Source: Planctomycetaceae bacterium
GTDB taxonomy: Bacteria; Planctomycetota; Planctomycetia; Planctomycetales; Planctomycetaceae
Assembly: GCA_041398745.1 (NCBI GenBank)
Contig: JAWKUB010000005.1
Span: 542,497 to 606,496 of the forward strand
DNA: 64,000 bases
Direction of reading: 5' to 3'
Part shown: positions 3,511 through 26,969 of the stretch, piece after piece
Numbering within the stretch: position 1 is the first letter of the stretch
Layout of the letters: each line of letters begins with the position of its first letter
Translations under genes and position numbers: made by a program
The notes under the pieces: model-generated
Database searches by the model: none
The model's input: the letters and a program-made list of their open reading frames with translations, nothing else
Told to the model about the DNA's origin: nothing

Positions 3511-3795
3511 GACATTCCACCTTGGGTGAACCAAACGTGATCGGGAAGAGGCCGATACGATGAAAACTTTCGAACATACATTACTTACTTTTCCGTATTC
3601 TAGACTGCAAGTGACGATGAACGCCATGAATCACAATGTCTCCAAGGCCGCAAAGTCAGATCGCGAAGAATCCCCTTGCGTGTAGATTCTTTCCAACGAT
3701 TATGTTGGCATGGAATGGCTGAATGCCTTTCTCCGAAAGCCGTATGAGGTGTGCGGCGGAGCGTCGGGGGCTTAGGCGACGGTAGGAGCCGGTGG

Positions 3796-3858
3796 CCGCG
3801 ACCCGCGGAGATGTCGCAGCCGGTCCCTCGGCGTCGTCGGCAGCTCCGCGGGTCGCGG
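3796..3858. repeat. 15-bp perfect inverted repeat (CCGCGACCCGCGGAG / CTCCGCGGGTCGCGG) with a 33-nt spacer, inside a locally GC-rich non-coding block
   Basis: Read directly; the arms are 3796-3810 and 3844-3858. Confidence 0.9.
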
Positions 3859-3938
3859 GCAAAGCCCGTCGACGCGACGCCCTCATCGTGGTGTCCGCTT
3901 CTCGGCTCGTCCGAGCGGTGCAAGGGTTCGCTTTCTGC

Positions 3939-3968
3939 GACCCGTTACACGACCCGCAGCGTGACCCG
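3939..3968 (+). repeat. Three direct GACCCG repeats phased at exactly 12 bp (3939, 3951, 3963). A further copy lies at 3800 in the left arm of the inverted repeat.
   Basis: Read directly: cGACCCGttacacGACCCGcagcgtGACCCGttc. Confidence 0.85.
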
Positions 3969-4034
3969 TTCAGGGGACACGTTCCGCATCAGCAAAAAGT
4001 CAGTCGCTGTTTCGCGTCATAGCATGAGTTTTGA

Positions 4035-5462: not shown

Positions 5463-5483
5463 GGGAAGGGATTGCGGTCAAAC

Positions 5484-6032
5484 CTAAGAGCGTGACCGGC
5501 CAAACAAATGGAACTCACGCAGCCAGAAAGAACGGCTGCGATCAGTCCCCTGCTTCGGCTCCATCACAACTTCTGCTGGTGATGCTGGCGCCGCAATGGA
5601 AAGTCGCTGCTGCAATTCCTTCATCAGGATGTTCTGCTCACGCATGCGTTCATTCTGATTCCCAATTTGCTCATCCTTGCGGTCGAGTTGCTTTTCCAGG
5701 GTTTCAATCTGACGATCCTTCGACTGCAACTGCTCCCGCAGAACTTCAATCAAAGGTGAAGAGAGTTCATCGATAGGGGAGTCTACTTTGCGAGTTTTCG
5801 GCTTCTGCTCCGGCTCTTTGGGAAGTCGTTGCAACAGAAACTCCCGCTCGATCCGCCACGCATACAGCTCACCCGCCGCCCGCTTGGCCGCCAGTTCGTT
5901 GACGGACGGCTGAATTGATTCCCTGTCAGGGTGGCCTTCCGTCTGCACCACATCATGAATCAACCGCTTAATCGTCGATTCCGACTTGCCCACGAGTGCG
6001 GCGGCATCTTTGACTGTGAGAAACTTTTCCAT
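5484..6032 (-). CDS. Excisionase-family / MerR-type HTH DNA-binding protein with a coiled-coil C-terminus
   Basis: N-terminus MEKFLTVKDAAALVGKSESTIKRLI matches the HTH_17/excisionase pattern. The C-terminal half is E/Q/K-rich and heptad-like. Confidence 0.7.
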   Translation of the reverse strand: MEKFLTVKDAAALVGKSESTIKRLIHDVVQTEGHPDRESIQPSVNELAAKRAAGELYAWRIEREFLLQRLPKEPEQKPKTRKVDSPIDELSSPLIEVLREQLQSKDRQIETLEKQLDRKDEQIGNQNERMREQNILMKELQQRLSIAAPASPAEVVMEPKQGTDRSRSFWLREFHLFGRSRS

Positions 6033-6133
6033 AATGAGGGTGGGGGAGTAACGCCACCAGCATACCCCAGTTCACCGCCCCGTCCAAGAAAATCATGGCC
6101 GAAGTTCACTGATCGCCGTTCAACCACCCCGAT

Positions 6134-6161
6134 CATGACTCATCCATGACCCCGCCATGAC
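6134..6161 (+). promoter_or_regulatory. Three direct CATGAC repeats phased at 11 bp, upstream of the excisionase-type gene; candidate protein-binding array
   Basis: gatCATGACtcatcCATGACcccgcCATGACcgc, with repeats starting at 6134, 6145 and 6156. Confidence 0.45.
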
Positions 6162-6354
6162 CGCATCCATAAACGGGGCAAGAGGGGAGTCGTCGAGTCC
6201 AGACCTGCGTCCCCAGCCGGTCATTGGCCGACCAGTGAACCGTCCACACCCCGATCAACCGCCGGTCAGGTTTCCCTTGCACAAATGCCTGAACGATGTC
6301 ATGACCTCAGCCATGCAGGGCAGTGACGCCGGTTACTGACTCGCGTTGAGCTCC

Positions 6355-6500
6355 ACAGCACTTTTGCAATCTGCTCCGGCGTGTGCCGCTTCCGTCGCTT
6401 CTTCGTCACCCGCAAAGGTCTCTTCAATGCCACACAGGTAGTTGAAACACTCGTGGCACATGGACCAAGTCTTCAATTGCAGACCACTCCAATTCTTGGC
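6355..6500 (-). mobile_element. Remnant of the 5' region of an IS3-family-like element (leader plus the first ~17 codons of an HTH_Tnp_1-type OrfA). It is homologous to the remnant at 34523-34800 but inverted.
   Basis: The minus strand reads ...cttggtccatgtgccacgagtgtttcaactacctgtgtggcattgaagagacctttgcgggtgacgaagaagcgacggaagcggcacacgccggagcagattgcaaaagtgctg. This aligns by eye with 34590-34700. It encodes (V)TKKRRKRHTPEQIAKVL and then diverges. Confidence 0.7.
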
Positions 6501-6593
6501 TGTACGCGATTCATGCTAAACCGCATTACCGCTTGACACGCCTGGAGCTAACGTGGTAGCTTGGCTGCAGCAATTTTCATGCCAGGAACAAGA

Positions 6594-7124
6594 ATGACAA
6601 AAGAACTTGAACTCGAATTGACATTCCTCGCCTCTCCGAGGTTGGTGACCCATTCACTGTTGGAAGGTGTAGATATGGTTGATGTGTACATCCCGTCCAA
6701 CACAAGTGTCGTGCATCCGCGATTACGGCTTCGGCAGCAGGCAGACCGCTACACCGTAACAAAAAAGATTCCCGTGAGCAGCGATGATGCATCGGCGCAC
6801 ACCGAGGAAACCATTTGCCTGACTCTTGACGAATTTGAATGCCTTTCAGCAGCGAGCGGTCGTAGGGTTGCGAAGACGAGATACAAATGTGACTTGGGAG
6901 GCCGAATAGCTGAAGTAGACGTCTTCAAGGAATCGCTTGCGGGCCTTGTCCTCATTGACTTTGAGTTTGCGAATTCTAGTGAACTTCTGGATTTCACCCC
7001 TCCACCTGAGTGCTTGGCAGATGTCACGCAGGAGGAGTTTATTGCGGGAGGAGTGCTCGCTGGAAAGTCCTACAATGATATTAGTCCGCAGCTAGAGAGA
7101 TTCAACTATGAACCAGTCCGGTAA
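6594..7124 (+). CDS. CYTH-domain (triphosphate tunnel metalloenzyme / CyaB-ThTPase-like) protein
   Basis: ExExK-type start (MTKELELELTF), then RLRLRQ, YTVTKK, AKTRYK and EVDVF...GLVLIDFEF acidic/basic strand pattern. The ATG at 6594 is preferred over the TTG at 6561. Confidence 0.65.
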   Translation: MTKELELELTFLASPRLVTHSLLEGVDMVDVYIPSNTSVVHPRLRLRQQADRYTVTKKIPVSSDDASAHTEETICLTLDEFECLSAASGRRVAKTRYKCDLGGRIAEVDVFKESLAGLVLIDFEFANSSELLDFTPPPECLADVTQEEFIAGGVLAGKSYNDISPQLERFNYEPVR

Positions 7125-7626
7125 ACGATCATCGCGGCAGGACACTGTTCGCTACTTTGGCAGTCTCGCCATTGCAGCACAAACTGATAGCGAGTCAGAG
7201 CTAGCCGTGCAGGCCCTAACTGAATGTAGCAACTTCCTTAAGGGCAAGTATGCACCAGGCCGGCATCACGTAGCCTCTGTCCTAAAGTGTGTTGGCAACA
7301 CCTACTTTGGTCTACACATAGACTGCGTAGGTTTCGACAGATGTGCCGAGGGTATAGCGCTTGCTAGCGCTGTAATGGCTGATGAAAGCGACTTTCAGAT
7401 CGTCGTTTCGATGATGTGGAATGGTGAGTCCGGTATTGAACCCTGGCTGATTCCGCCGTGCGGTGATTGTCGGCAATTCCTGCACGAATACGCCCCTAGT
7501 GTAAAGGTTGCTGTTGAGTCCGATGCGAGGATTCGTCTCCATCCGATAGAATGCCTGCTCCCATTTGCGTATAGTTCATCAGCTAAAACTGCTAAACGGA
7601 GGCTTCGCATTGTGGGTCGCGATTGA
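7108..7626 (+). CDS. Cytidine-deaminase-fold zinc enzyme (Cdd / blasticidin-S-deaminase type)
   Basis: CAEGIALASAV and PPCGDCRQFL zinc-ligand motifs. The start overlaps the CYTH gene by 17 nt. Confidence 0.75.
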   Translation: MNQSGKRSSRQDTVRYFGSLAIAAQTDSESELAVQALTECSNFLKGKYAPGRHHVASVLKCVGNTYFGLHIDCVGFDRCAEGIALASAVMADESDFQIVVSMMWNGESGIEPWLIPPCGDCRQFLHEYAPSVKVAVESDARIRLHPIECLLPFAYSSSAKTAKRRLRIVGRD

Positions 7627-8239
7627 TGGCACTGATGCAACTGGTAAGACTACTTTATGTCACCTTATCAGAGATCGCCTAGTTTCTCTTGGTTACAACG
7701 TGACGATAATTGGTGAATTCTCAGATTCGATTCTGGGCGATTTTCTCAATCGCATCGTCCGTGAGAGAAAGTATTTCTCATTCAGCAATGGCGACCCACC
7801 GCTTGCAGTTGCCGAGTCGCTTTGTCTGGTTGCGGATCTCGCCGCAAAGGCAAGCCAAGCGAAATACCAGCGTGGCTGTGATCTGGTGCTATCCGACCGC
7901 GGCGTCCTTTCCGTACTTGGCTATCAGTTTGCTCGGGTCTCGGATGTTTACGGTGCCTCCGTTGCCGAGAGAACGATTGACCAAATCCGTGAACTTATCT
8001 GTAACCTGGAGTTAGGGCCAGACTGTCATGTCTTCTTAGATGCAGGCTCCGCAACATTGCGGTCACGACTCGCCAAGAGATACGGAGGTTCGGTTTCACT
8101 GAGCGACCATGCTAAAGTGCTACGCTACCAGGAATGCTGCAAGAAATATCTGTCGGGTTCCGATTTCTGTATTGTCATTGATGAATGCGAGAATCTTGCA
8201 GGCCGAATTACTGAGATCGCATGCAAGCTAATTAATTGA
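7565..8239 (+). CDS. dTMP-kinase-like P-loop nucleotide kinase
   Basis: Walker A VAIDGTDATGKTT. VLSDRGVLSVLGYQF matches the DR(Y/F)xxSxxAYQ motif of thymidylate kinases. The true start may be the TTG near 7610. Either start overlaps the deaminase gene. Confidence 0.65.
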   Translation: MRIVHQLKLLNGGFALWVAIDGTDATGKTTLCHLIRDRLVSLGYNVTIIGEFSDSILGDFLNRIVRERKYFSFSNGDPPLAVAESLCLVADLAAKASQAKYQRGCDLVLSDRGVLSVLGYQFARVSDVYGASVAERTIDQIRELICNLELGPDCHVFLDAGSATLRSRLAKRYGGSVSLSDHAKVLRYQECCKKYLSGSDFCIVIDECENLAGRITEIACKLIN

Positions 8240-9505
8240 CTCCATATTCTTGATCTGATCGATGTTTTCGCACACCTTCATTAGACCTCGGAGATACTTG
8301 TCCATAATTGCGGCGTCGTCAAGCGTGGTCCACATTGGCATTTTTACGAGGCTCTCGTAGATCTCTTTGGCAACACTAAACCCTTCTTGCTTGGCGATAG
8401 GATCGTCGTAGAGTCGCGGAATTAGGCTTCCAGGAGATGTAAACAATGGCAGCTCATTCAGTAGTCCAGTTGACCCTGGGATGTCAAACTCCACTAGGCC
8501 TTCAGCATGCAAGGCACGCACGAATAGTTCACGGCTGATTCCAGCCAAGTCCTCACGAAAGCGAAATGGGAAGGCGTAAAACGACCATTCGTTCGGATTG
8601 CCGTTAATGTTTTCAAGAAAAGGAGTCGCATTGATATAGTCGAAAAAACGACGACCGTACTTCCGCTTCATGTCAAGGATGTCGTCCAGCCGATTAAGCA
8701 TCTCGAGCGCAATCGCGATTGCGAGTGGATGAGCCCGCAACTTTAGCCCCTCACCAGTAAGGTAGAAGCGTCGAAGTCCGTCGTCCTCAGGGATCTCTTG
8801 CTTGGGACGCTTGTTGTAGTGCCCTTGCAGCAGTGCACGCCTATAAAGGGAGGGATTATCGGTCGCAAAAACTCCCCCTTCTCCCCCCGTAACGATTTTT
8901 TGGCCTTGCAAGCTCCATGCCGCCACATCACCAAACGTTCCAACTAAGCGGCCAGAAATGCTCGCTCCATGAGCGTGTGAACAATCTTCTAGCAGGTAGA
9001 GGCCCCTATCCGAGCAGAACTGGGCAATCTCCTTGGTGTCCCTTGCAGGTACGCCCCACATGTGGGTAATCACCACAGCTCGAGTTCTAGCTGTGGTCTT
9101 GCCCTTCAATTCAGCAAGGGAAAGGCCGCACGATTCGTCACAGTCGGCAAACACCGGGACCGCGCCTGTCTGCATCAGTGGGCTGACTGCAGCATGGAAG
9201 GTATACACCGGGCATATTACCTCGTCGCCAGGACCAACCCCAATAGAATCAAACATTGCGAAGATCGAGGATGTCCCGGAATTTGACACGAGGCAGTACT
9301 GGCGTCCATGGTAGGATGCGAATCGGTCTTCGAAGGATTCGAACACGCCAGAACGGTCGTAGATCGAAATTGTTTGTCGGAGCTGTTCTAGGACCACCTT
9401 CTCGATTCGCTCGTCAATAATCGGCCATTTGAAGGCTGCATATTGGGAGTCTGCAATTGGCATTCCTCCGCATAAAGCCAATCGGGAGTTCGCGTTAGTT
9501 TGCAT
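8228..9505 (-). CDS. DegT/DnrJ/EryC1/StrS-family PLP-dependent aminotransferase
   Basis: DEVICPVYTFHAAVSPL, ITHMWGVPA, LLEDCSHAHGA and SLQGQKIVTGGEGG (PLP-lysine motif). The longest ORF starts at 9529. The 3' end overlaps the kinase gene convergently by 12 nt. Confidence 0.8.
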   Translation of the reverse strand: MQTNANSRLALCGGMPIADSQYAAFKWPIIDERIEKVVLEQLRQTISIYDRSGVFESFEDRFASYHGRQYCLVSNSGTSSIFAMFDSIGVGPGDEVICPVYTFHAAVSPLMQTGAVPVFADCDESCGLSLAELKGKTTARTRAVVITHMWGVPARDTKEIAQFCSDRGLYLLEDCSHAHGASISGRLVGTFGDVAAWSLQGQKIVTGGEGGVFATDNPSLYRRALLQGHYNKRPKQEIPEDDGLRRFYLTGEGLKLRAHPLAIAIALEMLNRLDDILDMKRKYGRRFFDYINATPFLENINGNPNEWSFYAFPFRFREDLAGISRELFVRALHAEGLVEFDIPGSTGLLNELPLFTSPGSLIPRLYDDPIAKQEGFSVAKEIYESLVKMPMWTTLDDAAIMDKYLRGLMKVCENIDQIKNMESIN

Positions 9506-10529
9506 TGAGTGATCTCCCAAGTAGCTCACGAGGATTCACGGTCAATCCGGTACGAGCGGACTCATAGGCCGCATCTACGAAAGCCACCTGTTCTAAGTAG
9601 TGCATTCCGAAGTCGTAATCGCCAATATTGTCCATTGCAAATTTCGCAAAATCTTCGATTTGGTCTGCCAATGCAGATGGCCACGCTCCGAATCGTTCCA
9701 TGGACTCGACAGTAGTTCCATCAATGTCATGACGCGCAATTTTTCCGCGTCGAACGCACGCCATTCCTTTGGTGCCATGTGCGACTAAATGCTCATCTTT
9801 CTCGCCATAAACCCGAGACACAATTAGGCTACCCAGCACTTCCTCACCCGGATTATTCTCGCAATATGAAAAGTTCACAAATGCTGTGTCCTCAACATCA
9901 TATTCCTGTCCAACTCTATTGCGCATCGACGTTCTGCATGTGATCAAATCAGGAAGCCCAAAATACCACACAATGAGGTCCACGTAATGGTATCCAAGGT
10001 CAATTAATGCCCCACCTCCCGAGTAAAGTCGACTTGCGCGCCAGCCGCAATCCAATCGCGATATGTTTAGTGCGTACTTTGCTTCAATGGAGAATATTCG
10101 ACCAATTCGGCGCAGCAACTGGGGAAAGCTTTGAAAGACCGGATTGTATCTCCTCTGAAGCGTTAGCGACAGAAGCACATTATTGGCTTCGACAACAGCT
10201 TTCATCTGCAGGGCTTCCTTCAGTGAAACTGCCAGTGGTTTTTCTTTGAGGATGTGAATGCCGGCCTCAGCGAGTTCGCAAACAGCCTCTAGATAACCAA
10301 CGTGCGGGATCGCAACGAGCGCGGCGGTTGGCTTGGGGTTCTCTTTCAGAAACTCACTGATGCTTTTTGCAAATGGCACCGCCAACGCTTTCCCGACGCG
10401 CGCGGCTTTCTCGATATCGGTGTCCACGACGCCAGCTAGGTGGACATCATCACTGGATTGGATCGCTGGGATGTGATCATCTAGGCTCTGGTGCCCGAGG
10501 CCGACAACAAGAAAATCGAAACTTGACAT
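9495..10529 (-). CDS. Gfo/Idh/MocA-family NAD(P)-dependent oxidoreductase
   Basis: Rossmann start MSSFDFLVVGLGHQSLDDHIPAI and the EKP motif (ILKEKPLAVSL). The longest ORF starts at 10589. Confidence 0.8.
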   Translation of the reverse strand: MSSFDFLVVGLGHQSLDDHIPAIQSSDDVHLAGVVDTDIEKAARVGKALAVPFAKSISEFLKENPKPTAALVAIPHVGYLEAVCELAEAGIHILKEKPLAVSLKEALQMKAVVEANNVLLSLTLQRRYNPVFQSFPQLLRRIGRIFSIEAKYALNISRLDCGWRASRLYSGGGALIDLGYHYVDLIVWYFGLPDLITCRTSMRNRVGQEYDVEDTAFVNFSYCENNPGEEVLGSLIVSRVYGEKDEHLVAHGTKGMACVRRGKIARHDIDGTTVESMERFGAWPSALADQIEDFAKFAMDNIGDYDFGMHYLEQVAFVDAAYESARTGLTVNPRELLGRSLNAN

Positions 10530-10585: not shown

Positions 10586-11128
10586 TCAATCAATCGAGAG
10601 CCGATCAAGTATGGTTCGTCGGAAAGGGTTTTGGTCGAGATTCCCGACGCGTAGGGAGTACAGGTCCATCAGGAGAGCCAGGTAGGCGAACTGTCCCCGT
10701 TGACAAAGCGGCAAATACGTGATGTCACCGACCCACACTTCGTTGATCTTCACCGGTTGTGGACGGTCCAGCAGGAGGTTGTCGTTGTAACCCAGTGTGT
10801 GCCTGCTTTCCGTGGTTCGGGGCTGGAACGATTTGGGCTGGATGGCTCTGAGACCCAGTGTTTTCATCACTCGCGAGACTCGATCCACACCACACAGAAC
10901 ATTGCGTTCCCGCAGTTCCGCCGCGATGCGACGTGCTCCATAGCGTCGCTTGTGTTGATGAAAGATCTCGCCAATCATCGCGTGTAGCGGTTCTTCCTGC
11001 TCTCTTTGAGGAGACACTCTTTCACGCTTCCAGGCGTGAAAGCCAGATCGAGAAACGTTCAATGTGCGACACACCACACTCACCGGAAATGCCTCTTGAA
11101 AAATCACCTGCTGAATTGCTGAGTACAC
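10586..11128 (-). pseudogene. IS3-family transposase OrfB, truncated
   Basis: It matches OrfB of the intact copy up to ...FAYLALLMDLYS, then runs into unrelated sequence. Only the first catalytic D region (WVGDITY) is retained. Confidence 0.85.
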
Positions 11129-11499
11129 GTCGGCTACCCGCTGCGGCTGAAAATGGACAAGGCTTTTTTTAGGATGTCACGCTCCCGCTCGACCCGCCGG
11201 AGTTCCTCTTCCAGTTGCCGCACCCGCGCTTCCAGTGACTCGGCCGCCACTCCTGCCTGGCTGATGAACTCCCGCTTCCAGCGGTACAACAAATTCACGC
11301 TGGAAAGCCCCAGCCGCTGTGCCACCGCCGGGGCCGACTGACCATCCAAGTGCAACTGCACAGCGTCTCGCTTGAAGTCCTCGGTGTACGTTCGACGCTC
11401 CCGAGTCGTCGCTTTTGTACTCTTTCCGCGTGCCATCGGTCTTCCTCCCGACCACACAGAATAAGATTTCCAACTGTCCACGAAATCCCAAGCAACTCA
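10650..11499 (-). mobile_element. IS3-family element, 3'-truncated copy. IRL and OrfA are intact; OrfB is cut within the DDE core.
   Basis: The terminal sequence TGAGTTGCTTGGGATTTCGTGGACAG (minus strand, ending at 11499) matches the IR of the intact copy at 43168 except for one base. Homology to the intact copy is lost near 10650, right after ...LALLMDLYS. Confidence 0.85.
11134..11481 (-). CDS. IS3-family transposase OrfA (HTH), in the truncated copy
   Basis: 115 aa, differing from OrfA at 43186-43533 at two residues (KATT versus KTKT). Confidence 0.85.
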   Translation of the reverse strand: MDSWKSYSVWSGGRPMARGKSTKATTRERRTYTEDFKRDAVQLHLDGQSAPAVAQRLGLSSVNLLYRWKREFISQAGVAAESLEARVRQLEEELRRVERERDILKKALSIFSRSG

Positions 11500-11691: not shown

Positions 11692-11976
11692 ATGAAAGAC
11701 TCGAACAGAAAGCGGCTTGGTGTGAGTCGGAACAGTCTTGGGATTCGGATTCGCGGGCGACTTGAGCCAAGTCGTGGACGTCGCCCCGGACGGCCTTCGG
11801 ACCCATTACTAACGATTCAGCGTAAGATATCGATGACGGATGACACTCTTGGGTGGTTGGAGGAGTTGGCAGCAGCCGTGAGCACGTCTGAGCGTCAAGT
11901 CAGTCCGATGCAAGTTGCGGCTCACTTGCTTGAAGAGGTAGTAGAAGAATACGCGAAGAGTTCAGCTGCGGCATGA
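11692..11976 (+). CDS. Possible ribbon-helix-helix (CopG/Arc-like) small regulator
   Basis: RKISMTDDTLGWLEELAAAV fits a beta-strand plus helix RHH pattern. It lies 130 nt upstream of the next operon on the same strand. Confidence 0.4.
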   Translation: MKDSNRKRLGVSRNSLGIRIRGRLEPSRGRRPGRPSDPLLTIQRKISMTDDTLGWLEELAAAVSTSERQVSPMQVAAHLLEEVVEEYAKSSAAA

Positions 11977-12112
11977 GGCTGCGAGAGACGGGGAAGCGAG
12001 TCCAAGATGGTGGCAACTCAACAACCTGACGCATCTTTGTCGCTCTTCGGCGTTTGCTAAGTCCGCGACTCAAGGCCGAGAGTGGTAATTTGAACCTCTA
12101 CAGGGTGTGAGC

Positions 12113-12814
12113 ATGACAAGCACGAGCAAGACTGAGGTGAGCTATTTCCGGCCGCGAATTGACGGTCCGGAACTACGTATCGAAGATGCCGTTGTTTCGA
12201 AGCTGACCGAAATCTTCGAGCGAAACGATTGGCCCCTTTGGATAGGAGGTTCCGTTCCAATTGGTGCTGGATTCCCGGACATTGTTTCGGTTTGGTATGA
12301 CCCGCAGGTCATCACCCTCGCTGATTTCCCCGTCACCGATGGCCATATTCTGGCCTACCTCCGCACTGTGCGGCGAGCCACTCTTGAGACGATTGCAAGC
12401 CGTTTGCAGTTTTCGTCGAAGGATGTCGAAGACACTTTGCTTCGACTGACTGAGTCATCTGTTGTGGCTCGGGAGACAGAACGAGCCTTCGCCATTTCCT
12501 CCGCCTGGCGACAGATTCTCCCAGAAGTTATTACTGTCGAGGCCAAAGTCTCAGATTGGCAAGCAGCCTTACAACAAGCGAATCGAAACCGAATATTCGC
12601 ACATCGTTCTTTTGCCGCATTCCCCGAGCCGGTTGCCGAGCGGGTCATGAAGAAGTCCGGCTTTGAACTTCACGGCGTCGGGATTCTATCTGTTTCAGAG
12701 CAAGGTGAAGTCACCGTTGTCAGACCGGCACGCAGGAATAGCCCTTCTGTTTGGGACTATTATTTCCACTTGGCTGCTCTCGCTGCGAAAGACATGAACA
12801 ACAGGAACCACTAA
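12113..12814 (+). CDS. Hypothetical protein; possible PD-(D/E)xK nuclease fold with an inserted winged-helix
   Basis: GFPDIVSVW ... (ILAYLRTVRRATLETIASRLQFSSKDVEDTLLRL, wHTH-like) ... VITVEAKVSDW. The spacing between PD and ExK is unusually long, so the nuclease call is tentative. Confidence 0.4.
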   Translation: MTSTSKTEVSYFRPRIDGPELRIEDAVVSKLTEIFERNDWPLWIGGSVPIGAGFPDIVSVWYDPQVITLADFPVTDGHILAYLRTVRRATLETIASRLQFSSKDVEDTLLRLTESSVVARETERAFAISSAWRQILPEVITVEAKVSDWQAALQQANRNRIFAHRSFAAFPEPVAERVMKKSGFELHGVGILSVSEQGEVTVVRPARRNSPSVWDYYFHLAALAAKDMNNRNH

Positions 12815-13659
12815 TGTCATTCACCGTCGACATTAAGGACGCACAGGCACAGTTTCCGGACTACACGTTCATCAAGCCGCTTACACCAAGCGCTCAAAAA
12901 TGTGCATTTCACGTTCGCGATGCCGATGATACAGACCTTTGTCTGAAAATCATTTCTCCGACGTATGGAAATGACCGCCTACAGCGAGAGATTACTGCCA
13001 TGCAGCAAATCTCTCACGAGAATGTCGTTTCTCTCTTGGAGTACACTTTCTCTTCGACCCCGGGTTCGTTGAAGCACTATGTAATCGAAGAGTTTGTGGA
13101 GGGAGACGACTTACAAGCCCACCTCAACACGCCTTGGGACCGTTCTCGTCTCTCGAAAGTCTTTTCTCAACTGATGGACGGTCTACAGCAACTCAATGAG
13201 AAAGACATCGTTCACCGTGACTTAAAGCCGACAAACATCAGGCTCCGCTCAGATGACTCCCCAGTCATAATTGACTTTGGGCTGGCACGGCATCTGACAA
13301 TGACAGATTTGACCGCCACCGCTCAAGGAGCACAGATTGGGACTCCCCTTTATTTTGCACCTGAGCAATTCCAAGGGACCAAATACGACATCGACCATCG
13401 AACAGACCTGTTTGCGTCTGGGATCATCATCTACCAAGCACTCGTTGCCCGTCATCCATTTTATGCCGCTGGGATGTCGCGACCCGATCTGCAAGACCGA
13501 GTCTGTAGCAATGATGATTTCAAACGTGACGCGGATTTTCTTGCTTTGCCGAAGAAATGGCAACTACTGTTGAGCAAGCTGCTCGAAAAGGAACGTTCGA
13601 AGAGAATCAACTCGGCTCAGCAGGCTGCAATGCTGCTCCGCAAACTGGAGAATGAATAG
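12814..13659 (+). CDS. Hanks-type Ser/Thr protein kinase, stand-alone catalytic domain
   Basis: LCLKI (VAIK-like Lys), IVHRDLKPTNI, IIDFGLAR and PLYFAPEQ. There is no canonical GxGxxG loop. The start overlaps the previous stop (TAATG). Confidence 0.85.
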   Translation: MSFTVDIKDAQAQFPDYTFIKPLTPSAQKCAFHVRDADDTDLCLKIISPTYGNDRLQREITAMQQISHENVVSLLEYTFSSTPGSLKHYVIEEFVEGDDLQAHLNTPWDRSRLSKVFSQLMDGLQQLNEKDIVHRDLKPTNIRLRSDDSPVIIDFGLARHLTMTDLTATAQGAQIGTPLYFAPEQFQGTKYDIDHRTDLFASGIIIYQALVARHPFYAAGMSRPDLQDRVCSNDDFKRDADFLALPKKWQLLLSKLLEKERSKRINSAQQAAMLLRKLENE

Positions 13660-13661
13660 TC

Positions 13662-14852
13662 ATGCGAAGAGGAGCTTGGCATCAACTAGGCTGGAATCAT
13701 CAAAAAATGGTTATAGAGCAGCTGCAAAACAATGCGGGTGTTGGCATTGTTTTGAGTCCCCGAGATTTGAGCTATTCGAAGGCTAAGGAATACGTACCGC
13801 AGTACAAGGCCGAAGGGGCGTCCGTTGTACTTGACCCGCAGTGGCACATACCGGGATTCAGCAATACTCAGTTTGCTGAATACCCGACAGCCGACCTGAG
13901 AGCTTCCATCACGGACCTTGCCGCGATAACCGATACTGAGATGCAGCAGCTCAAGGACAAGCTTGTTTCGGAAAACTCCGCTCTTTCAACGGATGCCTTG
14001 ATTGCACCAGCAGTTCTGTACGCTGCTGGCAGAAGCGACATTGTGCAGTTAAACGCCAAGCTCCATGCCGTTGCCCGCGATGCAGCTGCAACGCTTGGCG
14101 TTCCGTGTTGGGGTACTGCATTTCTTGGCGAATCAATAACAAACAGCCAGCAGCTCGTGGAGTCAACGTTGTCCTCCGTAACCGCTTTGAATTGTGACGG
14201 CTGGTATTTTGGTTTTGAGTTTCCCTCAGAGCGAATACCGTCATCTACCGACACGGTTTACCGTTGCTTGCAGGCAGCTTTGCTGCTCGTGCAGACCGGC
14301 AAACCTGTCCTTCACGGTTACGCTGGGCCGCTTGGAATCCTCTCTTTTTCCTCGGGCTGCACCGGGGCTGCGTTTGGCGGAAGTCAGAAGCAGTGGCGGT
14401 TTTGCCCGGAAAGGTGGGAAGAATCTTCCGATGGTGGTGGAGGAGGACAGGCACCAGCTCGCTACTTCTCACGAAATCTCTGGGGGACAATTGTGTTTCC
14501 GGACGAAACGGCGTTATTGCCGCCCAATGTGCAATCTCAAGTGTTCACGCCCTCACCGTTCGCACCAAATCCACTTCCTACTACGTGGAGCAAGACCAAC
14601 GCACTTAAGCACCTCACGTACACGGTTTGCAAAGGTATCGAAAGTGTCGCAGCGAACACGGATTTGGCATCCTGCAGGCAAGCCGCCGAGAGCATGCTAG
14701 GCACAGCTGTTGGCCTTCACAATGACATAGCTCAACTCGGAATCACGCTAAAGGACGACACTGCCGCATATCAAGCGAATTGGCGTTCCGCATTGACTAT
14801 CCTGCAGCAGAACCACGGAGATGACTTCGAATTTCTTGACATGTTATTGTAA
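13662..14852 (+). CDS. Hypothetical 396-aa protein with no recognisable motif
   Basis: The ORF starts 2 nt after the kinase stop. It contains an internal SSDGGGGGQAP linker. Confidence 0.6.
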   Translation: MRRGAWHQLGWNHQKMVIEQLQNNAGVGIVLSPRDLSYSKAKEYVPQYKAEGASVVLDPQWHIPGFSNTQFAEYPTADLRASITDLAAITDTEMQQLKDKLVSENSALSTDALIAPAVLYAAGRSDIVQLNAKLHAVARDAAATLGVPCWGTAFLGESITNSQQLVESTLSSVTALNCDGWYFGFEFPSERIPSSTDTVYRCLQAALLLVQTGKPVLHGYAGPLGILSFSSGCTGAAFGGSQKQWRFCPERWEESSDGGGGGQAPARYFSRNLWGTIVFPDETALLPPNVQSQVFTPSPFAPNPLPTTWSKTNALKHLTYTVCKGIESVAANTDLASCRQAAESMLGTAVGLHNDIAQLGITLKDDTAAYQANWRSALTILQQNHGDDFEFLDMLL

Positions 14853-15053: not shown

Positions 15054-15095
15054 CTGGGGGTCAAGAGGCCGCAGGTTCAAATCCTGTCGTCCCGA
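15054..15095 (+). pseudogene. tRNA-Pro(GGG)-like 3' fragment running from the anticodon loop to the discriminator base; a probable att scar
   Basis: CTGGGGG|TCAAG|AGGCC|GCAGG-TTCAAAT-CCTGT|CGTCCCG|A has the layout of a tRNA-Pro 3' half. There is no matching 5' anticodon stem, D-arm or CGGGACG acceptor upstream. Confidence 0.6.
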
Positions 15096-15293
15096 CTATT
15101 CTCAGAAATGAGCCCTTCGGTGAGTACGTCGAAGGGCTTTCTCATCGTGGCGCAAAGACTTGCGCCATCGAGCCTACAGTTCAAACTGCTGTTTGGGTCG
15201 AGGCGTCTTTGCGTGCCATCTTCCGTAAACTCTTGTTATGAAACCACTTGGCGAGTTCAAACCCCGTCACCTTTCTTGGCTCTTCTCACCTTT

Positions 15294-15406
15294 TAGTGGG
15301 TGACCAGTTCTGGTAGCAGTTTGAGCTTTCCGCAGAAGAAGAGGATTCTGGTGCGGTAGTTGTCGAAGTTTCGGAAGTCACGGGCGGCGGTATTCAGTGT
15401 CGCGAA
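15294..15406 (-). pseudogene. C-terminal remnant of a DDE transposase (ISL3-like tail)
   Basis: The minus-strand frame gives FATLNTAARDFRNFDNYRTRILFFCGKLKLLPELVTH*. This resembles the ...AYGFRNFxNYRxRIL... tail of ISL3-family transposases. An in-frame stop lies immediately upstream. Confidence 0.35.
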
Positions 15407-15910: not shown

Positions 15911-16900
15911 ATGGCCGGTCGAAGAGCACTTGTCGTTGGAATAGACTATTACGAACACGCCAGTCGCCTGTATGGATGCGCCAGGGATGCGATTTCCGTC
16001 TCTCAAGTCCTCAAACACCACGGTGATTCAGTTGGGAGCCTGAATTTCCAGATACCGGACTTGCTTACTGCCTCGAACGGGCTGCAAGCTGTGTCGGTCG
16101 CGAAATTGCGATCCGCAGTAAAAGAACTGTTCACACATGAGCCGTACGAAGTAGCACTATTCTATTTTGCAGGACATGGTCACCTTGATTCGACTGGCGG
16201 TTTCCTGCTGGGAAGCGATTCCAAGTCGGGAGACGATGGAGTGTCGCTTAACGACATCCTAACGCTCGCGAATCAATCGAAGTCTACAAACCGCGTTATC
16301 GTCCTCGACAGTTGCCATTCTGGCATTGCCGGAGTGTTACCTCTCTCTGGTGTCACGGCCATTGAAGATGGCGTAACCATACTTACAGCTTCGACGGCTC
16401 AGCAGTATGCAACCGAAGAAAATGGGGCGGGAGTCTTCACAGGTCTATTTGTTGACGCCCTGAGAGGTGGTGCGAGTGACATTCTCGGAAATGTTACCCC
16501 CGGCAGCACATATGCACACATTGACCAATCACTGGGTGTCAAATCACAAAGACCGACATTCAAGACGAACACAAGGGCGTTCGTTTCGCTGAGGCGAGTA
16601 GAGCCAAAGATTGGATTACCGGAGTTGCGTAGAATAACGGAGATATTCCCTGAGCCCGAGTACGTCAAGAAATTGAATCCCACGTATGAACCTTACCGTT
16701 CAAGCGATGAAAAGGCGCTTCCAGCACCGCACGAGGAGAACGTAGTGATCTTTGGCATTCTCCAAAAACTAAACCGCACTAATTTGGTAGTACCGGTTGA
16801 TGCTGATGCGATGTATTGGGCAGCCATGAATTCAAAATCATGCCGCCTTACTCCATTGGGAAAACACTACCACAGACTCGTCGCCAATGATTTGATCTAG
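15911..16900 (+). CDS. Caspase-like (peptidase C14) protease with a ~90-aa C-terminal extension
   Basis: RALVVGIDYY, FYFAGHG (catalytic His) and VLDSCHSG (catalytic Cys). Confidence 0.85.
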   Translation: MAGRRALVVGIDYYEHASRLYGCARDAISVSQVLKHHGDSVGSLNFQIPDLLTASNGLQAVSVAKLRSAVKELFTHEPYEVALFYFAGHGHLDSTGGFLLGSDSKSGDDGVSLNDILTLANQSKSTNRVIVLDSCHSGIAGVLPLSGVTAIEDGVTILTASTAQQYATEENGAGVFTGLFVDALRGGASDILGNVTPGSTYAHIDQSLGVKSQRPTFKTNTRAFVSLRRVEPKIGLPELRRITEIFPEPEYVKKLNPTYEPYRSSDEKALPAPHEENVVIFGILQKLNRTNLVVPVDADAMYWAAMNSKSCRLTPLGKHYHRLVANDLI

Positions 16901-16926
16901 CAACACCACTTCTTTGGAGCATAGCA

Positions 16927-19900
16927 ATGGACTCATTCCCGCCGATTCGCGTGTTGCATGTTGGGGTGACTTCCGCTGCCGCCTTTGCATTCATTTCATG
17001 GGTGCTTTTGCCCAGATTGCGTCAACAATTTGCTTTGCCAGCGGACCCCGTCGCAACGGTAGGACGCGCCGGACGTTACGCAATGTTCGCATGGCTACGA
17101 AATGTCTGTGGGATTTGTGTCGTCGCCTCCCTTGTCGTCGCCGGGATCTTGAGCGCGCTCTGGTTGTCCTCAGGGGCAATTGAACGAGACTCGCTAGACT
17201 CTTCACGTGCCCTCTTTGCTTCAGCAAGGGACATTCTCAAAGCGGTGCGCCCATTTTGGTGGATAGCGTCAACCGGGCTTCTAATTGCGGGTATGGCGAT
17301 CATCGCAAGGGCTCGCGCTCGCCGAGGGTGTGAAGAGTTCTATGCCGAGGAAGTGAAGCGACAGGTATTGCGGCTGCAAGAAGACCGGGAGAACGGCAAG
17401 CTTCCGGAGTTGCCGCCAGACGACGTGATGCGGAAGATCTTGGAACATGTCCACACACTTGATCGGCAACTCGGCGAGCTATTGAGCAATTCGCAACTCC
17501 AGGTCGGCGACAAGCAGAGGCTTAAAAAAATCGCCGAGGCAGAAATCGGCAAATTGGTCGCCATGTATCAATGGCGAGATCTTGAGCGCCGAGTTGAATG
17601 GCAGAACATAGACATTGCCTCGGCCTTGATTGCCCCGAGTCCGGATGCGGGAAATAGCTTCAAAAGTCGAATGGCCCGTTTTTTGACGTCTAAGTCGACA
17701 GTGTCTTTTCTGGATCGAGGCACACGCTACTTGGTAATTGCCAGTACATTGCTCACGTTGTTGTCAACCGTTGGCTGGATGTCCGTGCCTGCGGCGAGCG
17801 TTGCGACGTCGGAACACGATCGAATCGAAGATTTGCAGGCTGCGTTCAATGCGATCGACGAGGTTGTTGCCGCTGGGGTACTTCCGGCTTCAGAGGACGA
17901 AGAGGCTCAGGCAGCGATTGATGAGGCAACAGCGGCCCTAAATCAGATTGATCAGGAAGTATCAGCTGGCTCTTCCGATCTTGACGATCTGGAACAGAGG
18001 ATTGCTTCCAAGGTCAAAGCGTACAAGTCAGATGTCGGAGCGGCAGATGCACTCTTTGAGGAAATTGACTCCGCTTTCAAAGAGCAAGAAACGCGGAAAC
18101 CACCCCGTTCTCCTCTCGATATTCCAGCGGACGCACCGGGCAATGCTGATCGAGTCGCTGAGTTGGAGGCACAGCTCGCTGAACTTTCTGAACTGTCTCA
18201 AAAGGCAGAGTCGCTCGAAGCAAAGCCCGCCTCAACGATCCGCCGTGATCTCACTGCGGCCACTGAAAAGGTGGGTGAATCGACTAGACAATCTGCGGTC
18301 TTCGAAACTCAAATTGATCAACAGCGCCGACGTATCCGCGCTGCCCAAGCTAAACAGGATGCACGCTTTGAGAATCGACTCTCAGCACTTAATGCGAAAA
18401 GAGCTGAACTGGAAAGATATGCGTCCAATCCGGCTCTGGAAGCCGATGCGGCTAAGGCTCTTGATTTGGTTGACGGAAACAAGGAGGTTGTAGAACAGCG
18501 GGTGAGGAAGAGTAAGACGCTGTTCGGGGCCGCAGAAGCACGTGTAGCAGCGTCATCAAGAGCAGTCGAATCTCATCTTGCCAAAGCGGAAGGCGTATCA
18601 GCCATGATACCCGGCTCAGTAGATGCACCGCCTTGGGTTGACACTCTACCGAACTTGGTTCGTGAAATTCGACGGCGATACGGACAGACAAAAACCGAAT
18701 TGACGCTGGAGGCTGCTCGTCTGAACCCGCGGCCTCTAACTCTAACTTCAGAAGAAGTGACATTGAAGAATCACGCTCTTGACGTCATTGAAAGCCAAAT
18801 GGCGGAAGCATTTGAAGGGCTGTCGCCGAATGCTCGCGAAATGACGTCGAGCTCCAAATCAACTGCTGCTGCGGAGCAGATTCTGAGGTCACACGCAGCA
18901 AAATTTGATGCTCGGAACGTGCCAGGGACTTACCTGTCGGCGGACGGGTTGCCACCCGAGACACGAGAGTTTCTCAAGGCATTTACTGAGCGGGGCCCGC
19001 CTGAACAATCACTTCGCGGCAAATTAAATAGAATATTGGAGGGAGTCATTCCGTCACTTTCCGAATCTCAAAGGGCGGAGTTGCGCAGTACCCAGCCGCG
19101 CCGTGTAACTGCGACTATGAGCGAGTTCGTGTCACCGCTTTTTCGTAGTGCCACCATGGAAACCCTTCCAGACGTCTTCCATCCGGCAATCGACGCTGCC
19201 AATGAGTTGGTAACAGAACTGGCGTCCGGCACATCACTGAAGCCAACATTCGAAAGTCCGCTGACTGAATTGGAGTCTGGCAGGGCTCTGCAACAGAACC
19301 TTCGCCGCGTTTCAAGCTCTTTCGAACAGTCGGTGGTGACTGAGGCGATTCAGAGAAGCCCGGCGACGTTGGAGACTGAGCGGATTGTCAGTCGCAATGC
19401 TGATGGACCACAGCTCGCAAATGAACAGAATATCAGCAAGGCCTTTGAAGATTATTTTGATCGAGTGCCAGAGTCAGTTCGGCGAAGTCGGCAGGTACCC
19501 GGAATAAGTGCAGTCGAATCTTTTGATTCCCACTTCCCGGGCCAGAATCCTCCTCCTCCTGATATCCCTGATTTCGGGGGACCAACGGCCCCAAAGCCGC
19601 CCAAGGGACCGGCGCCAAGTGGAAGCGGGTCTGCATCGCTAGCGAGAAGGATCGAGCAGAACCTGTACCGCAGCACTAGGCTTAGCAGTCAGGCTGCTCA
19701 GAATCTCCGTTTCACATCGTCTCAGTCGTTCTCTCGTGCTCGAAGCTTCAGCAGACTCCGCGGCTTTCGGAGAATCGGGGGCGTGCTGATTGGACGGGAG
19801 TTGGAAGGTGATCCCCAGATCACTGACATTGACTGGGATTGGAATACAGACGACGACAGGATTCGATTACGCATCAAGGGGAACGATGGCACGTGGCACG

Positions 19901-21696
19901 AATCAGAGTACTTTGATCCGCATACGATGGAACTCGCCCTTGCGTATGCCGCTGATGGTCGGCCAATTACTGTTACCATGGTAACGGCATCACCATTGCC
20001 GGAATTGCAGATACTCCTTCACCCGACTCTGGTTGACACAAGCGTCGGACAGGATGCAATTGAGCTCGACCGCTTCGTTGACACCTATGCTCGACGAGAG
20101 CCCTTCTGTCAAGAGGCCGAAAACCGAGTCCGGTCGGCGAAAGACCTTTTTAGACTTGCTTGGGCCGTCCGAGTTCTCCAACTGAAGGAATATGGTTTCG
20201 GCGCAGTGCAGAGCCCTGACGAAGGAGCAGAGCTTCTTCAAATCTATGCGGCAACCTTCGCCGCTGCCTCTCGAATCCTCGAAGAGGCAGACGAAACCTA
20301 TTTGGTCGCGAAGCAAAACGCCAAGACTCTAAAGGACACCCCAGTGTCCGATCGCCCGGAGTTTTTCGACAAAACACTAGTTGCATACACAGAACGCGCG
20401 TTGGCATCCGACTCGTTTGAGGGATTTCGGGATTCAATTCAAACGGCAGCAAACAACGAAATGAGGTCTGTGATCCGCAAGTCCGGTGGCAGCAATTTCG
20501 AGTGGCTTGTGCAAAACCCAAAAGCGTGGCGAGTTTTCTCCGAAGAGAGTGCGAGATTTGAATCTGCGTTGAATACATACAACCAGAACGTCAAACGATA
20601 CAACAACCGAGTAAACCCTTCACGCACAGACTCTATTCTGGACCGGCTACGAGGTGGTGCATTTGACATAGAAGACTATCAACGATTGCAGGATTCACAT
20701 CAAAACGATCAGCTCGCAAATTCGATAGACGAGCAACTGGCATGGCTGGAAGCCGAGAAACCCAGGATCGAGCAGCAACAAAAGAGTCTGCAAGAGCAAC
20801 AGGAGCAGCTTGAAAAATACCTGTTCCCTGTGGTCTCAGGCACAATCACATGGAGACTACCTCCGGCAGATTTCGAAGTCTGGAGCGGCGTTCGCGAGTC
20901 GAACTTCGAATGCACCCTGGAGAATCTGACTCAACCTAGTGGTGACGAGTTGCCGTTTCGCTTCATGCTGCAAACAGCATTTACATCCCCTGCCTTCTTT
21001 GACGCATCCGGCGAACTAATCGAGGACGAAGAGGACGACAGAAACGAGGATGACATTCCTCCGTGGACGTTTGAAGCGATATCTGACGAGCTGCACCAGT
21101 CTGTGGTTACCAGCGTGACGGAGGAAGAGCGCCTGCTCATCTCTCGCATGTCTGAATTCACGCAACTCCAGCGCATTTTCCGCCTCTTCTTTGAATCCAA
21201 TCATCCGCAGTTGCATCGTCTCGTTGAGCTCAACTCGGAATTGAACCAAGCCGTTCCAGTGAAATTGGTTCGGACATCCCGATGGAATGCTCGGCCCGGG
21301 GCTCTTGAGATAATCTTGCAAATTCAACTTCTCGAGTTTGGCCCGAAGTTGGAAAACACTGAAGCTAAGTCACAGTTGGACGAGCTTTCAGAGCTAGTGA
21401 CTGAGCAGTTGAATGCTGTCGCGACGCTCCGTGAATTACAAGCTGCTGACGAGAGTGACTGGAGTGAGGGCTGGGACAGATACCTCAGGGCAATTGAAGC
21501 TGGAAGAAAGAAGCTTCCAGACATTGTGTCCAGCCTCGGCAGTATCAGTCGGGCCCAACAAGAAAACAAAGTGCTGGAACAGCTGCACCAAACGGCTAAT
21601 CAGTACTCTTTGGCGGTGCAGTTGAGGTCCGAGCTTGGGGTCATAGAAGACGATCGCGCGGTTTTGAAACGCTCGCTTGATAGGGGGAGTGAGTGA
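16927..21696 (+). CDS. 1589-aa hypothetical protein with ~4 N-terminal TM segments, a long coiled-coil, a Pro-rich linker and a large C-terminal region of unknown fold
   Basis: Hydrophobic stretches VGVTSAAAFAFISWVLL, VCGICVVASLVVAGILSALWL, WWIASTGLLIAGMAIIA and YLVIASTLLTLLSTVGWM. The middle is A/E/Q/L-rich, followed by NPPPPDIPDFGGPTAPKPPKGPAPSG. No P-loop or catalytic motif was seen. Confidence 0.75.
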   Translation: MDSFPPIRVLHVGVTSAAAFAFISWVLLPRLRQQFALPADPVATVGRAGRYAMFAWLRNVCGICVVASLVVAGILSALWLSSGAIERDSLDSSRALFASARDILKAVRPFWWIASTGLLIAGMAIIARARARRGCEEFYAEEVKRQVLRLQEDRENGKLPELPPDDVMRKILEHVHTLDRQLGELLSNSQLQVGDKQRLKKIAEAEIGKLVAMYQWRDLERRVEWQNIDIASALIAPSPDAGNSFKSRMARFLTSKSTVSFLDRGTRYLVIASTLLTLLSTVGWMSVPAASVATSEHDRIEDLQAAFNAIDEVVAAGVLPASEDEEAQAAIDEATAALNQIDQEVSAGSSDLDDLEQRIASKVKAYKSDVGAADALFEEIDSAFKEQETRKPPRSPLDIPADAPGNADRVAELEAQLAELSELSQKAESLEAKPASTIRRDLTAATEKVGESTRQSAVFETQIDQQRRRIRAAQAKQDARFENRLSALNAKRAELERYASNPALEADAAKALDLVDGNKEVVEQRVRKSKTLFGAAEARVAASSRAVESHLAKAEGVSAMIPGSVDAPPWVDTLPNLVREIRRRYGQTKTELTLEAARLNPRPLTLTSEEVTLKNHALDVIESQMAEAFEGLSPNAREMTSSSKSTAAAEQILRSHAAKFDARNVPGTYLSADGLPPETREFLKAFTERGPPEQSLRGKLNRILEGVIPSLSESQRAELRSTQPRRVTATMSEFVSPLFRSATMETLPDVFHPAIDAANELVTELASGTSLKPTFESPLTELESGRALQQNLRRVSSSFEQSVVTEAIQRSPATLETERIVSRNADGPQLANEQNISKAFEDYFDRVPESVRRSRQVPGISAVESFDSHFPGQNPPPPDIPDFGGPTAPKPPKGPAPSGSGSASLARRIEQNLYRSTRLSSQAAQNLRFTSSQSFSRARSFSRLRGFRRIGGVLIGRELEGDPQITDIDWDWNTDDDRIRLRIKGNDGTWHESEYFDPHTMELALAYAADGRPITVTMVTASPLPELQILLHPTLVDTSVGQDAIELDRFVDTYARREPFCQEAENRVRSAKDLFRLAWAVRVLQLKEYGFGAVQSPDEGAELLQIYAATFAAASRILEEADETYLVAKQNAKTLKDTPVSDRPEFFDKTLVAYTERALASDSFEGFRDSIQTAANNEMRSVIRKSGGSNFEWLVQNPKAWRVFSEESARFESALNTYNQNVKRYNNRVNPSRTDSILDRLRGGAFDIEDYQRLQDSHQNDQLANSIDEQLAWLEAEKPRIEQQQKSLQEQQEQLEKYLFPVVSGTITWRLPPADFEVWSGVRESNFECTLENLTQPSGDELPFRFMLQTAFTSPAFFDASGELIEDEEDDRNEDDIPPWTFEAISDELHQSVVTSVTEEERLLISRMSEFTQLQRIFRLFFESNHPQLHRLVELNSELNQAVPVKLVRTSRWNARPGALEIILQIQLLEFGPKLENTEAKSQLDELSELVTEQLNAVATLRELQAADESDWSEGWDRYLRAIEAGRKKLPDIVSSLGSISRAQQENKVLEQLHQTANQYSLAVQLRSELGVIEDDRAVLKRSLDRGSE

Positions 21697-25728: not shown

Positions 25729-25734
25729 GCAGAT

Positions 25735-26946: not shown

Positions 26947-26969
26947 ATGCTTTCGCTCACTTCAGAGAT

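Follow-up and report, generated by a model that had tools for sequence, protein, structure and literature searches.

Innate immunity in eukaryotes relies centrally on kinase signalling. In prokaryotic defence such signalling is, to our knowledge, poorly understood; validated examples are few, and these are either single kinases or giant fusion proteins. Stk2, PD-T4-6, PglW, MAD6, Mokosh and TerY-P are the kinase-bearing defences with which a new candidate has to be compared. In PglW of type 2 BREX and in some DndF proteins a winged helix-turn-helix (wHTH) domain, a NERD-type restriction endonuclease domain, a (pseudo)kinase and a Ser/Thr/Tyr kinase are fused in one chain (PMC12839542, PMC10853773). 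In the CapK-CapS pair a kinase activated by DNA damage phosphorylates a DNA-binding repressor upstream of immune operons (PMC13373217). Here a unit of three genes is described which is located in a stretch of 64,000 nucleotides from a Planctomycetaceae bacterium (assembly GCA_041398745.1, contig JAWKUB010000005.1, positions 542,497 to 606,496), called the window in the following. The genes, named B, C and D (Table 1), encode in this order a nuclease-like protein with an inserted wHTH domain, a Hanks-type Ser/Thr kinase and a TIM-barrel protein. We consider it probable that this trio is an autonomous mobile conflict cassette of Bacteria and Archaea, most likely serving anti-phage or anti-plasmid defence.

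The reading begins with the conservation of the gene unit. A scan of one genome per species yielded 38 loci of the main clade, and in all 35 of these that had upstream DNA the genes B, C and D were found by tblastn in the same order and orientation. The loci belong to nine bacterial phyla (Planctomycetota, Acidobacteriota, Alpha-/Betaproteobacteria, Elusimicrobiota, Bacillota, Verrucomicrobiota, Chloroflexota, Thermodesulfobacteriota, and Actinomycetota). The junctions are tight, with B and C overlapping or adjacent, and with an overlap of 1 or 4 nucleotides between C and D in most loci (median -1 nucleotide). In the window the stop codon of B shares one nucleotide with the start of C, and two nucleotides separate C from D. 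As this order and the coupled junctions are kept in 34 loci, a chance arrangement is excluded. The same three-gene layout was found in a sister clade, which comprises Oceanobacillus caeni, a Bacillus mycoides plasmid, other genomes and metagenomes, and a plasmid of the haloarchaeon Natribaculum breve, the sole archaeon carrying the trio in this analysis. That the first gene of the sister-clade trios (B') is a homologue of B was shown with hhalign, at a probability of 98.5%. A metagenome scan with a narrow sister-clade alignment added three short loci. Across the two clades, at about 20% identity, the catalytic residues of C, the E/D/ExK/Q residues of B and the barrel-face residues of D are invariant, which suggests that selection acts on the catalytic residues of all three proteins. 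When 591 flanking open reading frames (ORFs) were clustered all against all, only the B, C and D families recurred, and no fourth conserved gene emerged. Homologues of the trio are present in culturable Bacillus, Oceanobacillus, Paracoccus and Bradyrhizobium.

Conservation of the unit is accompanied by variability of its surroundings. Even among the closest relatives, at 82-85% identity, the flanks differ: in the relative at 82% the trio stands alone between the genes for phosphoenolpyruvate carboxykinase and cytidylate kinase, and in the one at 85% a phage-type integrase lies directly upstream. The trio is carried on plasmids, and on the Bacillus mycoides plasmid NZ_CP128131, where it lies at 65234-67922, it is followed by a recombinase and an integrase. 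In Oceanobacillus caeni (JARTGE010000122, L046, positions 1-10099) it is part of a compact defence island, in which the complete type I restriction-modification system HsdM, HsdS, HsdR comes first, then a DUF8426-Mrr nuclease, the sister-clade trio, and a gene for an HNH_5 endonuclease. In the metagenome locus L039 the trio is followed by the same HNH-type gene. On the Natribaculum breve plasmid (CP095393, L048) an Eco57I/MmeI-type restriction-modification gene (487-3018) precedes the trio. A calcineurin-like metallophosphoesterase (7198-7887), possibly a counter-enzyme to the kinase, was seen directly after this archaeal trio. In the window the trio sits between a remnant of an insertion sequence (IS) of the IS3 family and a tRNA-fragment scar, beside a caspase/TIR/STAND island. 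In 36 loci 209 flanking ORFs were surveyed, the Pfam families listed being the 25 commonest of 115 and of 100, and about 15 of the ORFs were assigned to restriction or defence (three Mrr, PvuII, two N6-methyltransferases, a C5-methyltransferase, two to three HsdR-like proteins, PDC-S37/Hhe, HipA, and three further kinases) and about 15 to mobile elements (integrases, transposases, and plasmid genes); the remainder are ordinary metabolic genes. For comparison, one review puts the bacterial genes predicted to be anti-phage at about 1.5% (PMC13434031). No trio was found in GenBank phages or IMG/VR. The trio is a horizontally mobile, self-contained unit, as the original prediction had proposed. 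Two findings would have refuted that prediction, a conserved housekeeping context and a lack of conservation of the trio as a unit, and both are contradicted by the synteny and the variable flanks.

Some copies have decayed, as expected for genes which are dispensable and costly: insertion sequences interrupt C and D in L001, and frameshifts occur in L003 and L037. In L001 (positions 1-4748; Planctomycetia metagenome-assembled genome (MAG) CAVSWR010000002) insertions which carry ORFs break the kinase gene and gene D, and the residues at the junctions are duplicated (120-125 of the kinase, 26-36 of D), consistent with target-site duplications. A separate observation was made at three main-clade loci, where a second, distantly related Hanks-type kinase lies less than 5 kb from the trio (L026, 4906-5544; L030, 12428-13117; L032, 7155-7700). 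These second kinases match PD-T4-6 profiles strongly, with E-values down to 1e-91.

Gene C encodes a kinase domain only. It matches the Pkinase profile PF00069 over residues 43-269 with 121.7 bits (cut-off 31.7, E-value 4.6e-35) and is identical to MEZ5942510.1, named 'serine/threonine-protein kinase' at NCBI. In 32 sequences of both clades the invariant residues are K29, K45, E59, H134-R-D136, K138, N141, D154-F-G156, T167, T177, P183-E184, D198, and R264. They include the complete catalytic set, i.e. the beta3 lysine, the alphaC glutamate, HRDxKxxN, DFG, APE and the arginine of subdomain XI, from which we infer that C is a catalytically competent Ser/Thr kinase. T167 and T177 are threonines of the activation loop. 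The place of the glycine-rich loop GxGxxG is taken in C by the degenerate LTPSAQK. All three glycines are lost in the main-clade kinases, which have LTPSxQK, and the sister-clade kinases retain GxGxxK. Besides the beta3 lysine K45, both clades have the invariant lysine K29 (window 12898-12900) at the position of the third glycine. Profile and alignment agree with the description first given for this kinase, which had HRD, DFG and APE motifs, no regulatory domain and no glycine-rich loop.

Among the PADLOC models, PD-T4-6 profile PDLC04042 (292 positions) matches C best, with an E-value of 3.4e-44. More than 20 further PD-T4-6 profiles match as well, and next in rank are mad6 (9e-41) and the N-terminus of MkoA (3.9e-27). 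Scores against the curated NCBIfam equivalogs all stayed far under threshold: MAD6 (NF047741) reached 112 bits against a cut-off of 460, on the kinase domain only, and the PglW hidden Markov model 60.5 bits against a cut-off of 990. A PADLOC run, one of the checks proposed for the operon, thus recognised the kinase through PD-T4-6 and neither of its partners. Identity among loci is 47-65% for the kinase, compared with 34-56% for B and 34-70% for D. In the loci of both clades C is always accompanied by B and D with coupled junctions.

The product of gene B is found at NCBI, with 100% identity, as hypothetical protein R3C18_14035 from a Planctomycetaceae MAG; the start is placed there at an ATG two codons after the GTG start. 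In 30 main-clade sequences E22, P57-D58, E145-x-K147, Q157 and R160-N161 are invariant, and the E...PD...ExK...Q motif is retained in the sister-clade and archaeal homologues. The structural model (pLDDT 92.8) has the order a1-b1-b2-[wHTH]-b3-a2-b4, with helices at residues 21-37 and 151-161, strands at 44-48, 59-63, 140-146 and 167-173, and the insert, three helices plus a beta-wing, between the second and the third strand. This predicted order would fit an alpha-beta-beta-beta-alpha-beta core, and the conserved residues fall in the model where a PD-(D/E)xK nuclease has its catalytic residues. The spacing in which a PD and an ExK motif enclose a wHTH domain, noticed originally in the bare sequence, is therefore present, with both motifs invariant and the wHTH domain at residues 66-131 between them. 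Foldseek returned matches to MarR/ArsR-type wHTH domains over about 70 residues and nothing else, and weak matches to DUF4423 and Lrs14 HTH domains were seen at residues 75-132. A profile of the core with the insert deleted matched nothing in PDB or in Pfam, where NERD and Mrr_cat were covered, and hhalign gave a probability of 0.4% against an Mrr_cat protein, so neither NERD nor Mrr has left a signal in the core. As none of the Foldseek, profile and hhalign searches matched the core, its assignment as a PD-(D/E)xK-like nuclease split by a wHTH domain is plausible, not proven; the core appears to be under strong selection. Of the restriction endonuclease fold first suggested for B, the invariant residues and the predicted order of strands and helices fit, and a profile or structural match outside the wHTH domain is lacking.

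The product of gene D was modelled with a pLDDT of 90.7 and a pTM of 0.91 as a TIM barrel (residues about 1-300) followed by a three-helix C-terminal domain (311-395). No motif had been placed in this protein when it was first noticed, and searches of Pfam, NCBIfam, PADLOC, PHROGs and PDB sequences assigned it to no family; PDB profile searches were empty. A fold search of the PDB placed bacterial tRNA-guanine transglycosylases (TGTs) in all top 14 positions, with E-values of 2e-6 to 9e-6, TM-scores of 0.45-0.50 and about 400 aligned columns. Foldseek, which had been named as a check for both proteins, thus recovered the wHTH domain of B without its core, and for D a TIM barrel with TGT as the best match. 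The glycosidases NagZ, GH5 and GH10 are also among the fold matches, and a search of viral structures in BFVD returned generic TIM barrels only. TGT structures contain a zinc-binding CxCxxC...H subdomain. In D no cysteine occurs in an invariant or near-invariant column, and hhalign against E. coli Tgt gave a probability of 0.1% with two profiles (A1, A7). Together with the empty PDB profile searches, this value leads us to reject D as a true TGT or DpdA and to keep the resemblance as a lead at fold level. A metal nuclease of the TatD/amidohydrolase or Endo IV type is unsupported as well, there being no HxH motif, and H7 and H218 of the main clade are not kept in the sister clade. Both clades conserve the polar residues Q8, S32, D58, Q60 and Y182, and one acidic residue only is universally invariant. 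The five polar residues map to barrel strands or to positions directly after them, where TIM barrels usually have their catalytic residues, so D is probably an enzyme. Its full-length homologues number more than 155 proteins of about 397 residues, none of them named. In an exhaustive profile search the count at E<=1e-3 was 727 representatives, including a second tier of about 400 residues and about 20% identity. Apart from the weak HTH matches of B, neither B nor D has a match at family level in Pfam, NCBIfam or PHROGs, and in RefSeq both are hypothetical proteins.

A defence cassette composed of these three proteins might work as follows. Translational coupling would provide B, C and D in fixed proportion, acting as one complex. 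B would bind DNA through the inserted winged helix and carry an active nuclease centre of the PD-(D/E)xK type. As C has no sensor domain of its own, it would have to be switched by B and/or D. D, as a TIM-barrel enzyme, would supply a second activity, possibly on base-sugar bonds; the TGT enzymes, to which it comes closest in structure, cleave and re-form the bond between base and sugar in nucleic acids. Foreign DNA or an infection cue would lead to autophosphorylation of the kinase on the conserved activation-loop threonines, and the activated kinase may phosphorylate its partners and possibly host or invader proteins. Phosphorylation would then license the nuclease and/or the TIM-barrel enzyme, resulting in attack on the nucleic acid of the invader or in shutdown of the cell. 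As originally proposed, phosphorylation may control, or be triggered through, the DNA-binding or nuclease component. In this scheme it is domain content, coupling and analogy that suggest a complex, a role in defence, the way in which the signal runs and the substrates; what the analysis shows is a conserved and mobile gene unit, catalytic residues intact in each of the three proteins, and the folds of C and D. In a bolder form, which we regard as unlikely, the trio would represent a new immune class of Bacteria and Archaea in which a minimal kinase couples a DNA-sensing nuclease to a TIM-barrel enzyme that excises or exchanges bases at the base-sugar bond of nucleotides or nucleic acids and serves as the effector or as the self-mark. 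If true, this would mean that phosphorylation-gated base chemistry on nucleic acids is used as immunity.

Several results weigh against defence as the function of the trio. B, C and D evolve at similar moderate rates, and the fast-evolving sensor typical of many abortive-infection systems is missing. No phosphatase was found to be conserved with the trio. The nuclease fold of B finds no profile or structural match outside the wHTH domain with Foldseek, PDB, Pfam and hhalign, and neither B nor D is matched by a PADLOC model. The likeness of D to TGT is at fold level only, with a TM-score of about 0.5, and NagZ, xylanase, aldolase and pyruvate kinase barrels follow close behind. Many of the flanking genes belong to ordinary metabolism, and the enrichment of defence genes is a rough count, not a statistical test.

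Among the other explanations, a logic similar to restriction-modification retains a small but appreciable probability. In it the TGT-like D would mark host DNA or RNA, B would cut unmarked DNA which it reads through its wHTH domain, and the kinase would tune the balance. The fold matches of D, TGT in all 14 best cases over some 400 columns, point in this direction, as does the presence of TGT homologues in defences which mark DNA, namely DpdA in Dpd and a TGT in a HerA/FtsK-PglZ system (PMC12839542). B combines an intact nuclease-type motif with a DNA-binding domain, and in L003 a frameshifted B stands beside intact C and D, which is the direction of loss tolerated in restriction-modification systems. 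Yet D has a probability of 0.1% against E. coli Tgt with two profiles, lacks the cysteines of the zinc site and keeps a single universally invariant acidic residue, and at a TM-score of about 0.5 generic TIM barrels score nearly as well. In the two lists of commonest flank families, which give 25 entries out of 115 and out of 100, queC/D/E, folE, DpdB and DpdC do not occur, although a single occurrence could escape such lists, and no fourth gene recurs across loci. The gene order, with the nuclease first and the putative modifier last, is the reverse of the usual safe order. A toxin-antitoxin or addiction module, which would stabilise plasmids and islands without a dedicated anti-phage role and in which the kinase or the nuclease B would be a toxin restrained by a partner, is quite improbable. 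It would account for a small, tightly coupled operon on plasmids and islands which is not found in phages (GenBank phages, IMG/VR). Kinase toxins with HTH partners are known, namely HipBA and HipBST (PMC8262856), and wHTH proteins often autoregulate toxin-antitoxin operons. D, however, with about 400 residues and a conserved enzyme-like active face, does not resemble typical antitoxins, the invariant catalytic motif of B would be needless in a mere repressor, C is Hanks-type and not HipA-type, and all three proteins are equally conserved. Toxin-antitoxin and defence roles are, moreover, not mutually exclusive.

The kinase could also be the effector itself, causing abortive infection in the manner of Stk2 and PD-T4-6 by phosphorylating many host proteins, with B and D as accessory sensors or regulators. 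PD-T4-6 is a validated single-gene defence with a eukaryotic-like kinase (PMC9519451), its profile is the best PADLOC match of C and of similar length, and among the three proteins the kinase varies least. But PD-T4-6 and Stk2 act alone and C is never found without B and D, and since catalytic-looking invariant residues are kept in B and D, these are probably enzymes rather than passive sensors, which leaves a purely kinase-driven mechanism very unlikely. A housekeeping operon, in which a wHTH regulator and a kinase would serve a TIM-barrel enzyme processing sugars or nucleosides in metabolic signalling without any role in conflict, is extremely improbable. TIM barrels are mostly metabolic enzymes, NagZ, GH5 and GH10 appear among the matches of D, and some copies of the trio lie amid ordinary metabolic genes; against these points stand the patchy spread over nine phyla and Archaea with unrelated flanks even in close relatives, the association with plasmids, integrases, IS elements and restriction genes, the occurrence of IS-disrupted copies, and transporter or pathway genes that are not co-conserved. 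A mobile conflict cassette with a defence role is the reading which we prefer.

Within the window the three genes lie at the coordinates at which they had been predicted, including the overlap at 12812-12816 and the gap at 13659/13662. The small reading frame in front of them, ORF A, had been taken for a ribbon-helix-helix (RHH) protein belonging to the system. It has no match to RHH or any other family in Pfam, PADLOC, NCBIfam or PHROGs, was not found in public protein sets, and is missing beside every related trio, the closest relatives included, which rules it out as an operon member. The borders fared better. On the left the IS3 remnant is indeed truncated, with OrfA (115 residues) intact and OrfB broken off after roughly the first 30 residues of the rve integrase core; this truncation abuts a sugar-modification cluster with a GFO/IDH/MocA oxidoreductase and a DegT aminotransferase. 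On the right the 3' half of a tRNA, about 40 nucleotides with the GGTTCAAATCC motif and a flanking stem, was read directly from the sequence and is likely an integration scar, as had been suspected. The window contains neither an intact tRNA or tmRNA nor a second copy of the fragment by which an island could be delimited; the partner of the scar would lie elsewhere. A transposase remnant had also been reported on this side. The peptide ARDFRNFDNYRTRILFFCGKL at about 15300-15400 on the minus strand, which we take to resemble the C-terminal end of ISL3-family transposases, has no match in Pfam, and the remnant is not confirmed. Scans for promoters and terminators gave signals which did not exceed the shuffled background. 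Further to the right, at 15911-30639, a conflict island with caspase, TIR, STAND and protease genes was observed. The caspase and the 1589-residue protein are, like ORF A, never co-conserved with the trio; they belong to this separate island and are ruled out as parts of the system.

Table 1. Positions of the trio and of neighbouring features in the window
Feature	Positions	Strand	Remarks
Gene B	12107-12814	+	235 residues, GTG start; first gene of the trio
Gene C	12814-13659	+	281 residues from ATG; Hanks-type Ser/Thr kinase, middle gene
Gene D	13662-14852	+	396 residues; TIM-barrel protein, last gene
wHTH insert of B	12302-12499	+	residues 66-131 (Foldseek, model)
ORF A	11692-11976		94 residues; precedes the trio
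IS3-family remnant (context only)	10586-11481	-	left border; HTH_Tnp_1 OrfA, HTH_21 and partial rve OrfB
tRNA 3'-half fragment (context only)	15058-15097	+	right border; T-arm plus acceptor 3' strand
Caspase, EACC1-associated type	15911-16900		
1589-residue protein	16927-21696		no family match
TIR-domain protein	21693-23141		
DUF4062 and AAA/STAND-like ATPase	23119-25728		
Subtilase	25735-26946	-	
Trypsin-like protease	29281-30639		

The trio offers a compact, widespread and dissectable arrangement in which each function resides on a small, confidently modelled protein of its own. With culturable hosts and separate proteins, sensing and switching of a defence kinase become directly testable. 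Two unannotated protein families are defined by it, for which public data contain, taken together, between several hundred and a few thousand proteins, and one of them is a TIM barrel that may hold new chemistry on nucleic acids or nucleotides. Automated defence finders would probably label at most C alone as PD-T4-6-like and overlook the system. No description of the trio was found in the open-access literature searched, nor in Pfam, NCBIfam, PADLOC and PHROGs, in line with the original prediction that it is not a described system.

With PD-T4-6 of E. coli and Stk2 of staphylococci the trio shares a Hanks-type kinase with all catalytic motifs, and the top PADLOC profile of C is a PD-T4-6 profile of near-equal length. 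These defences are single genes, whereas C is a bare kinase domain of 281 residues coupled to two conserved proteins outside PADLOC, and it differs further in its degenerate glycine loop with the invariant lysine. PglW and DndF, which work in an anti-invader context, are built from the same kinds of parts as the trio, namely a winged helix, a restriction-endonuclease-type domain and an active Ser/Thr kinase. They carry these in a single fusion of 1400-1600 residues with extra sensor domains and with PglX/PglZ or DndGH as partners, whereas the trio consists of separate small proteins, its wHTH domain is inserted inside the nuclease-like core, which has no NERD profile match, and the partner is a TIM barrel. 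A pseudokinase, a methyltransferase as partner, PglX and PglZ are not among the most frequent flank families listed.

TGT and DpdA, the latter from the Dpd system of 7-deazaguanine DNA modification, resemble D in having a TIM barrel with a C-terminal subdomain, and TGTs are its best structural matches. D differs from them in lacking sequence or profile similarity and zinc-binding cysteines, the TM-score is about 0.5, and genes of the preQ0 pathway, DpdB and DpdC do not occur among the 25 commonest flank families, out of 115 and of 100. MADS with MAD6, type I Mokosh with MkoA, and the TerY-P triad are, like the trio, multi-gene systems which include a Hanks-type kinase, and the MAD6 and MkoA profiles match C. 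The match is confined to the kinase domain, and their partners, i.e. methyltransferase, helicase, phospholipase D-type (PLD) nuclease, vWA protein TerY and PP2C, are missing in the trio. CapK-CapS is a functional analogue, in which a kinase and a DNA-binding protein control an adjacent immune effector. The two components, an anti-sigma-factor-type kinase and a STAS-domain protein, are not homologous to C and B and precede many different operons, whereas B and C always occur with D; with kinase and substrate from different families, identity of the trio with CapK/CapS is ruled out. The trio shares parts and logic with all these kinase defences and is a member of none. Since defences that bear a kinase are already known, what appears to be new is a probable multi-gene defence in which the kinase is joined by two unannotated protein families.

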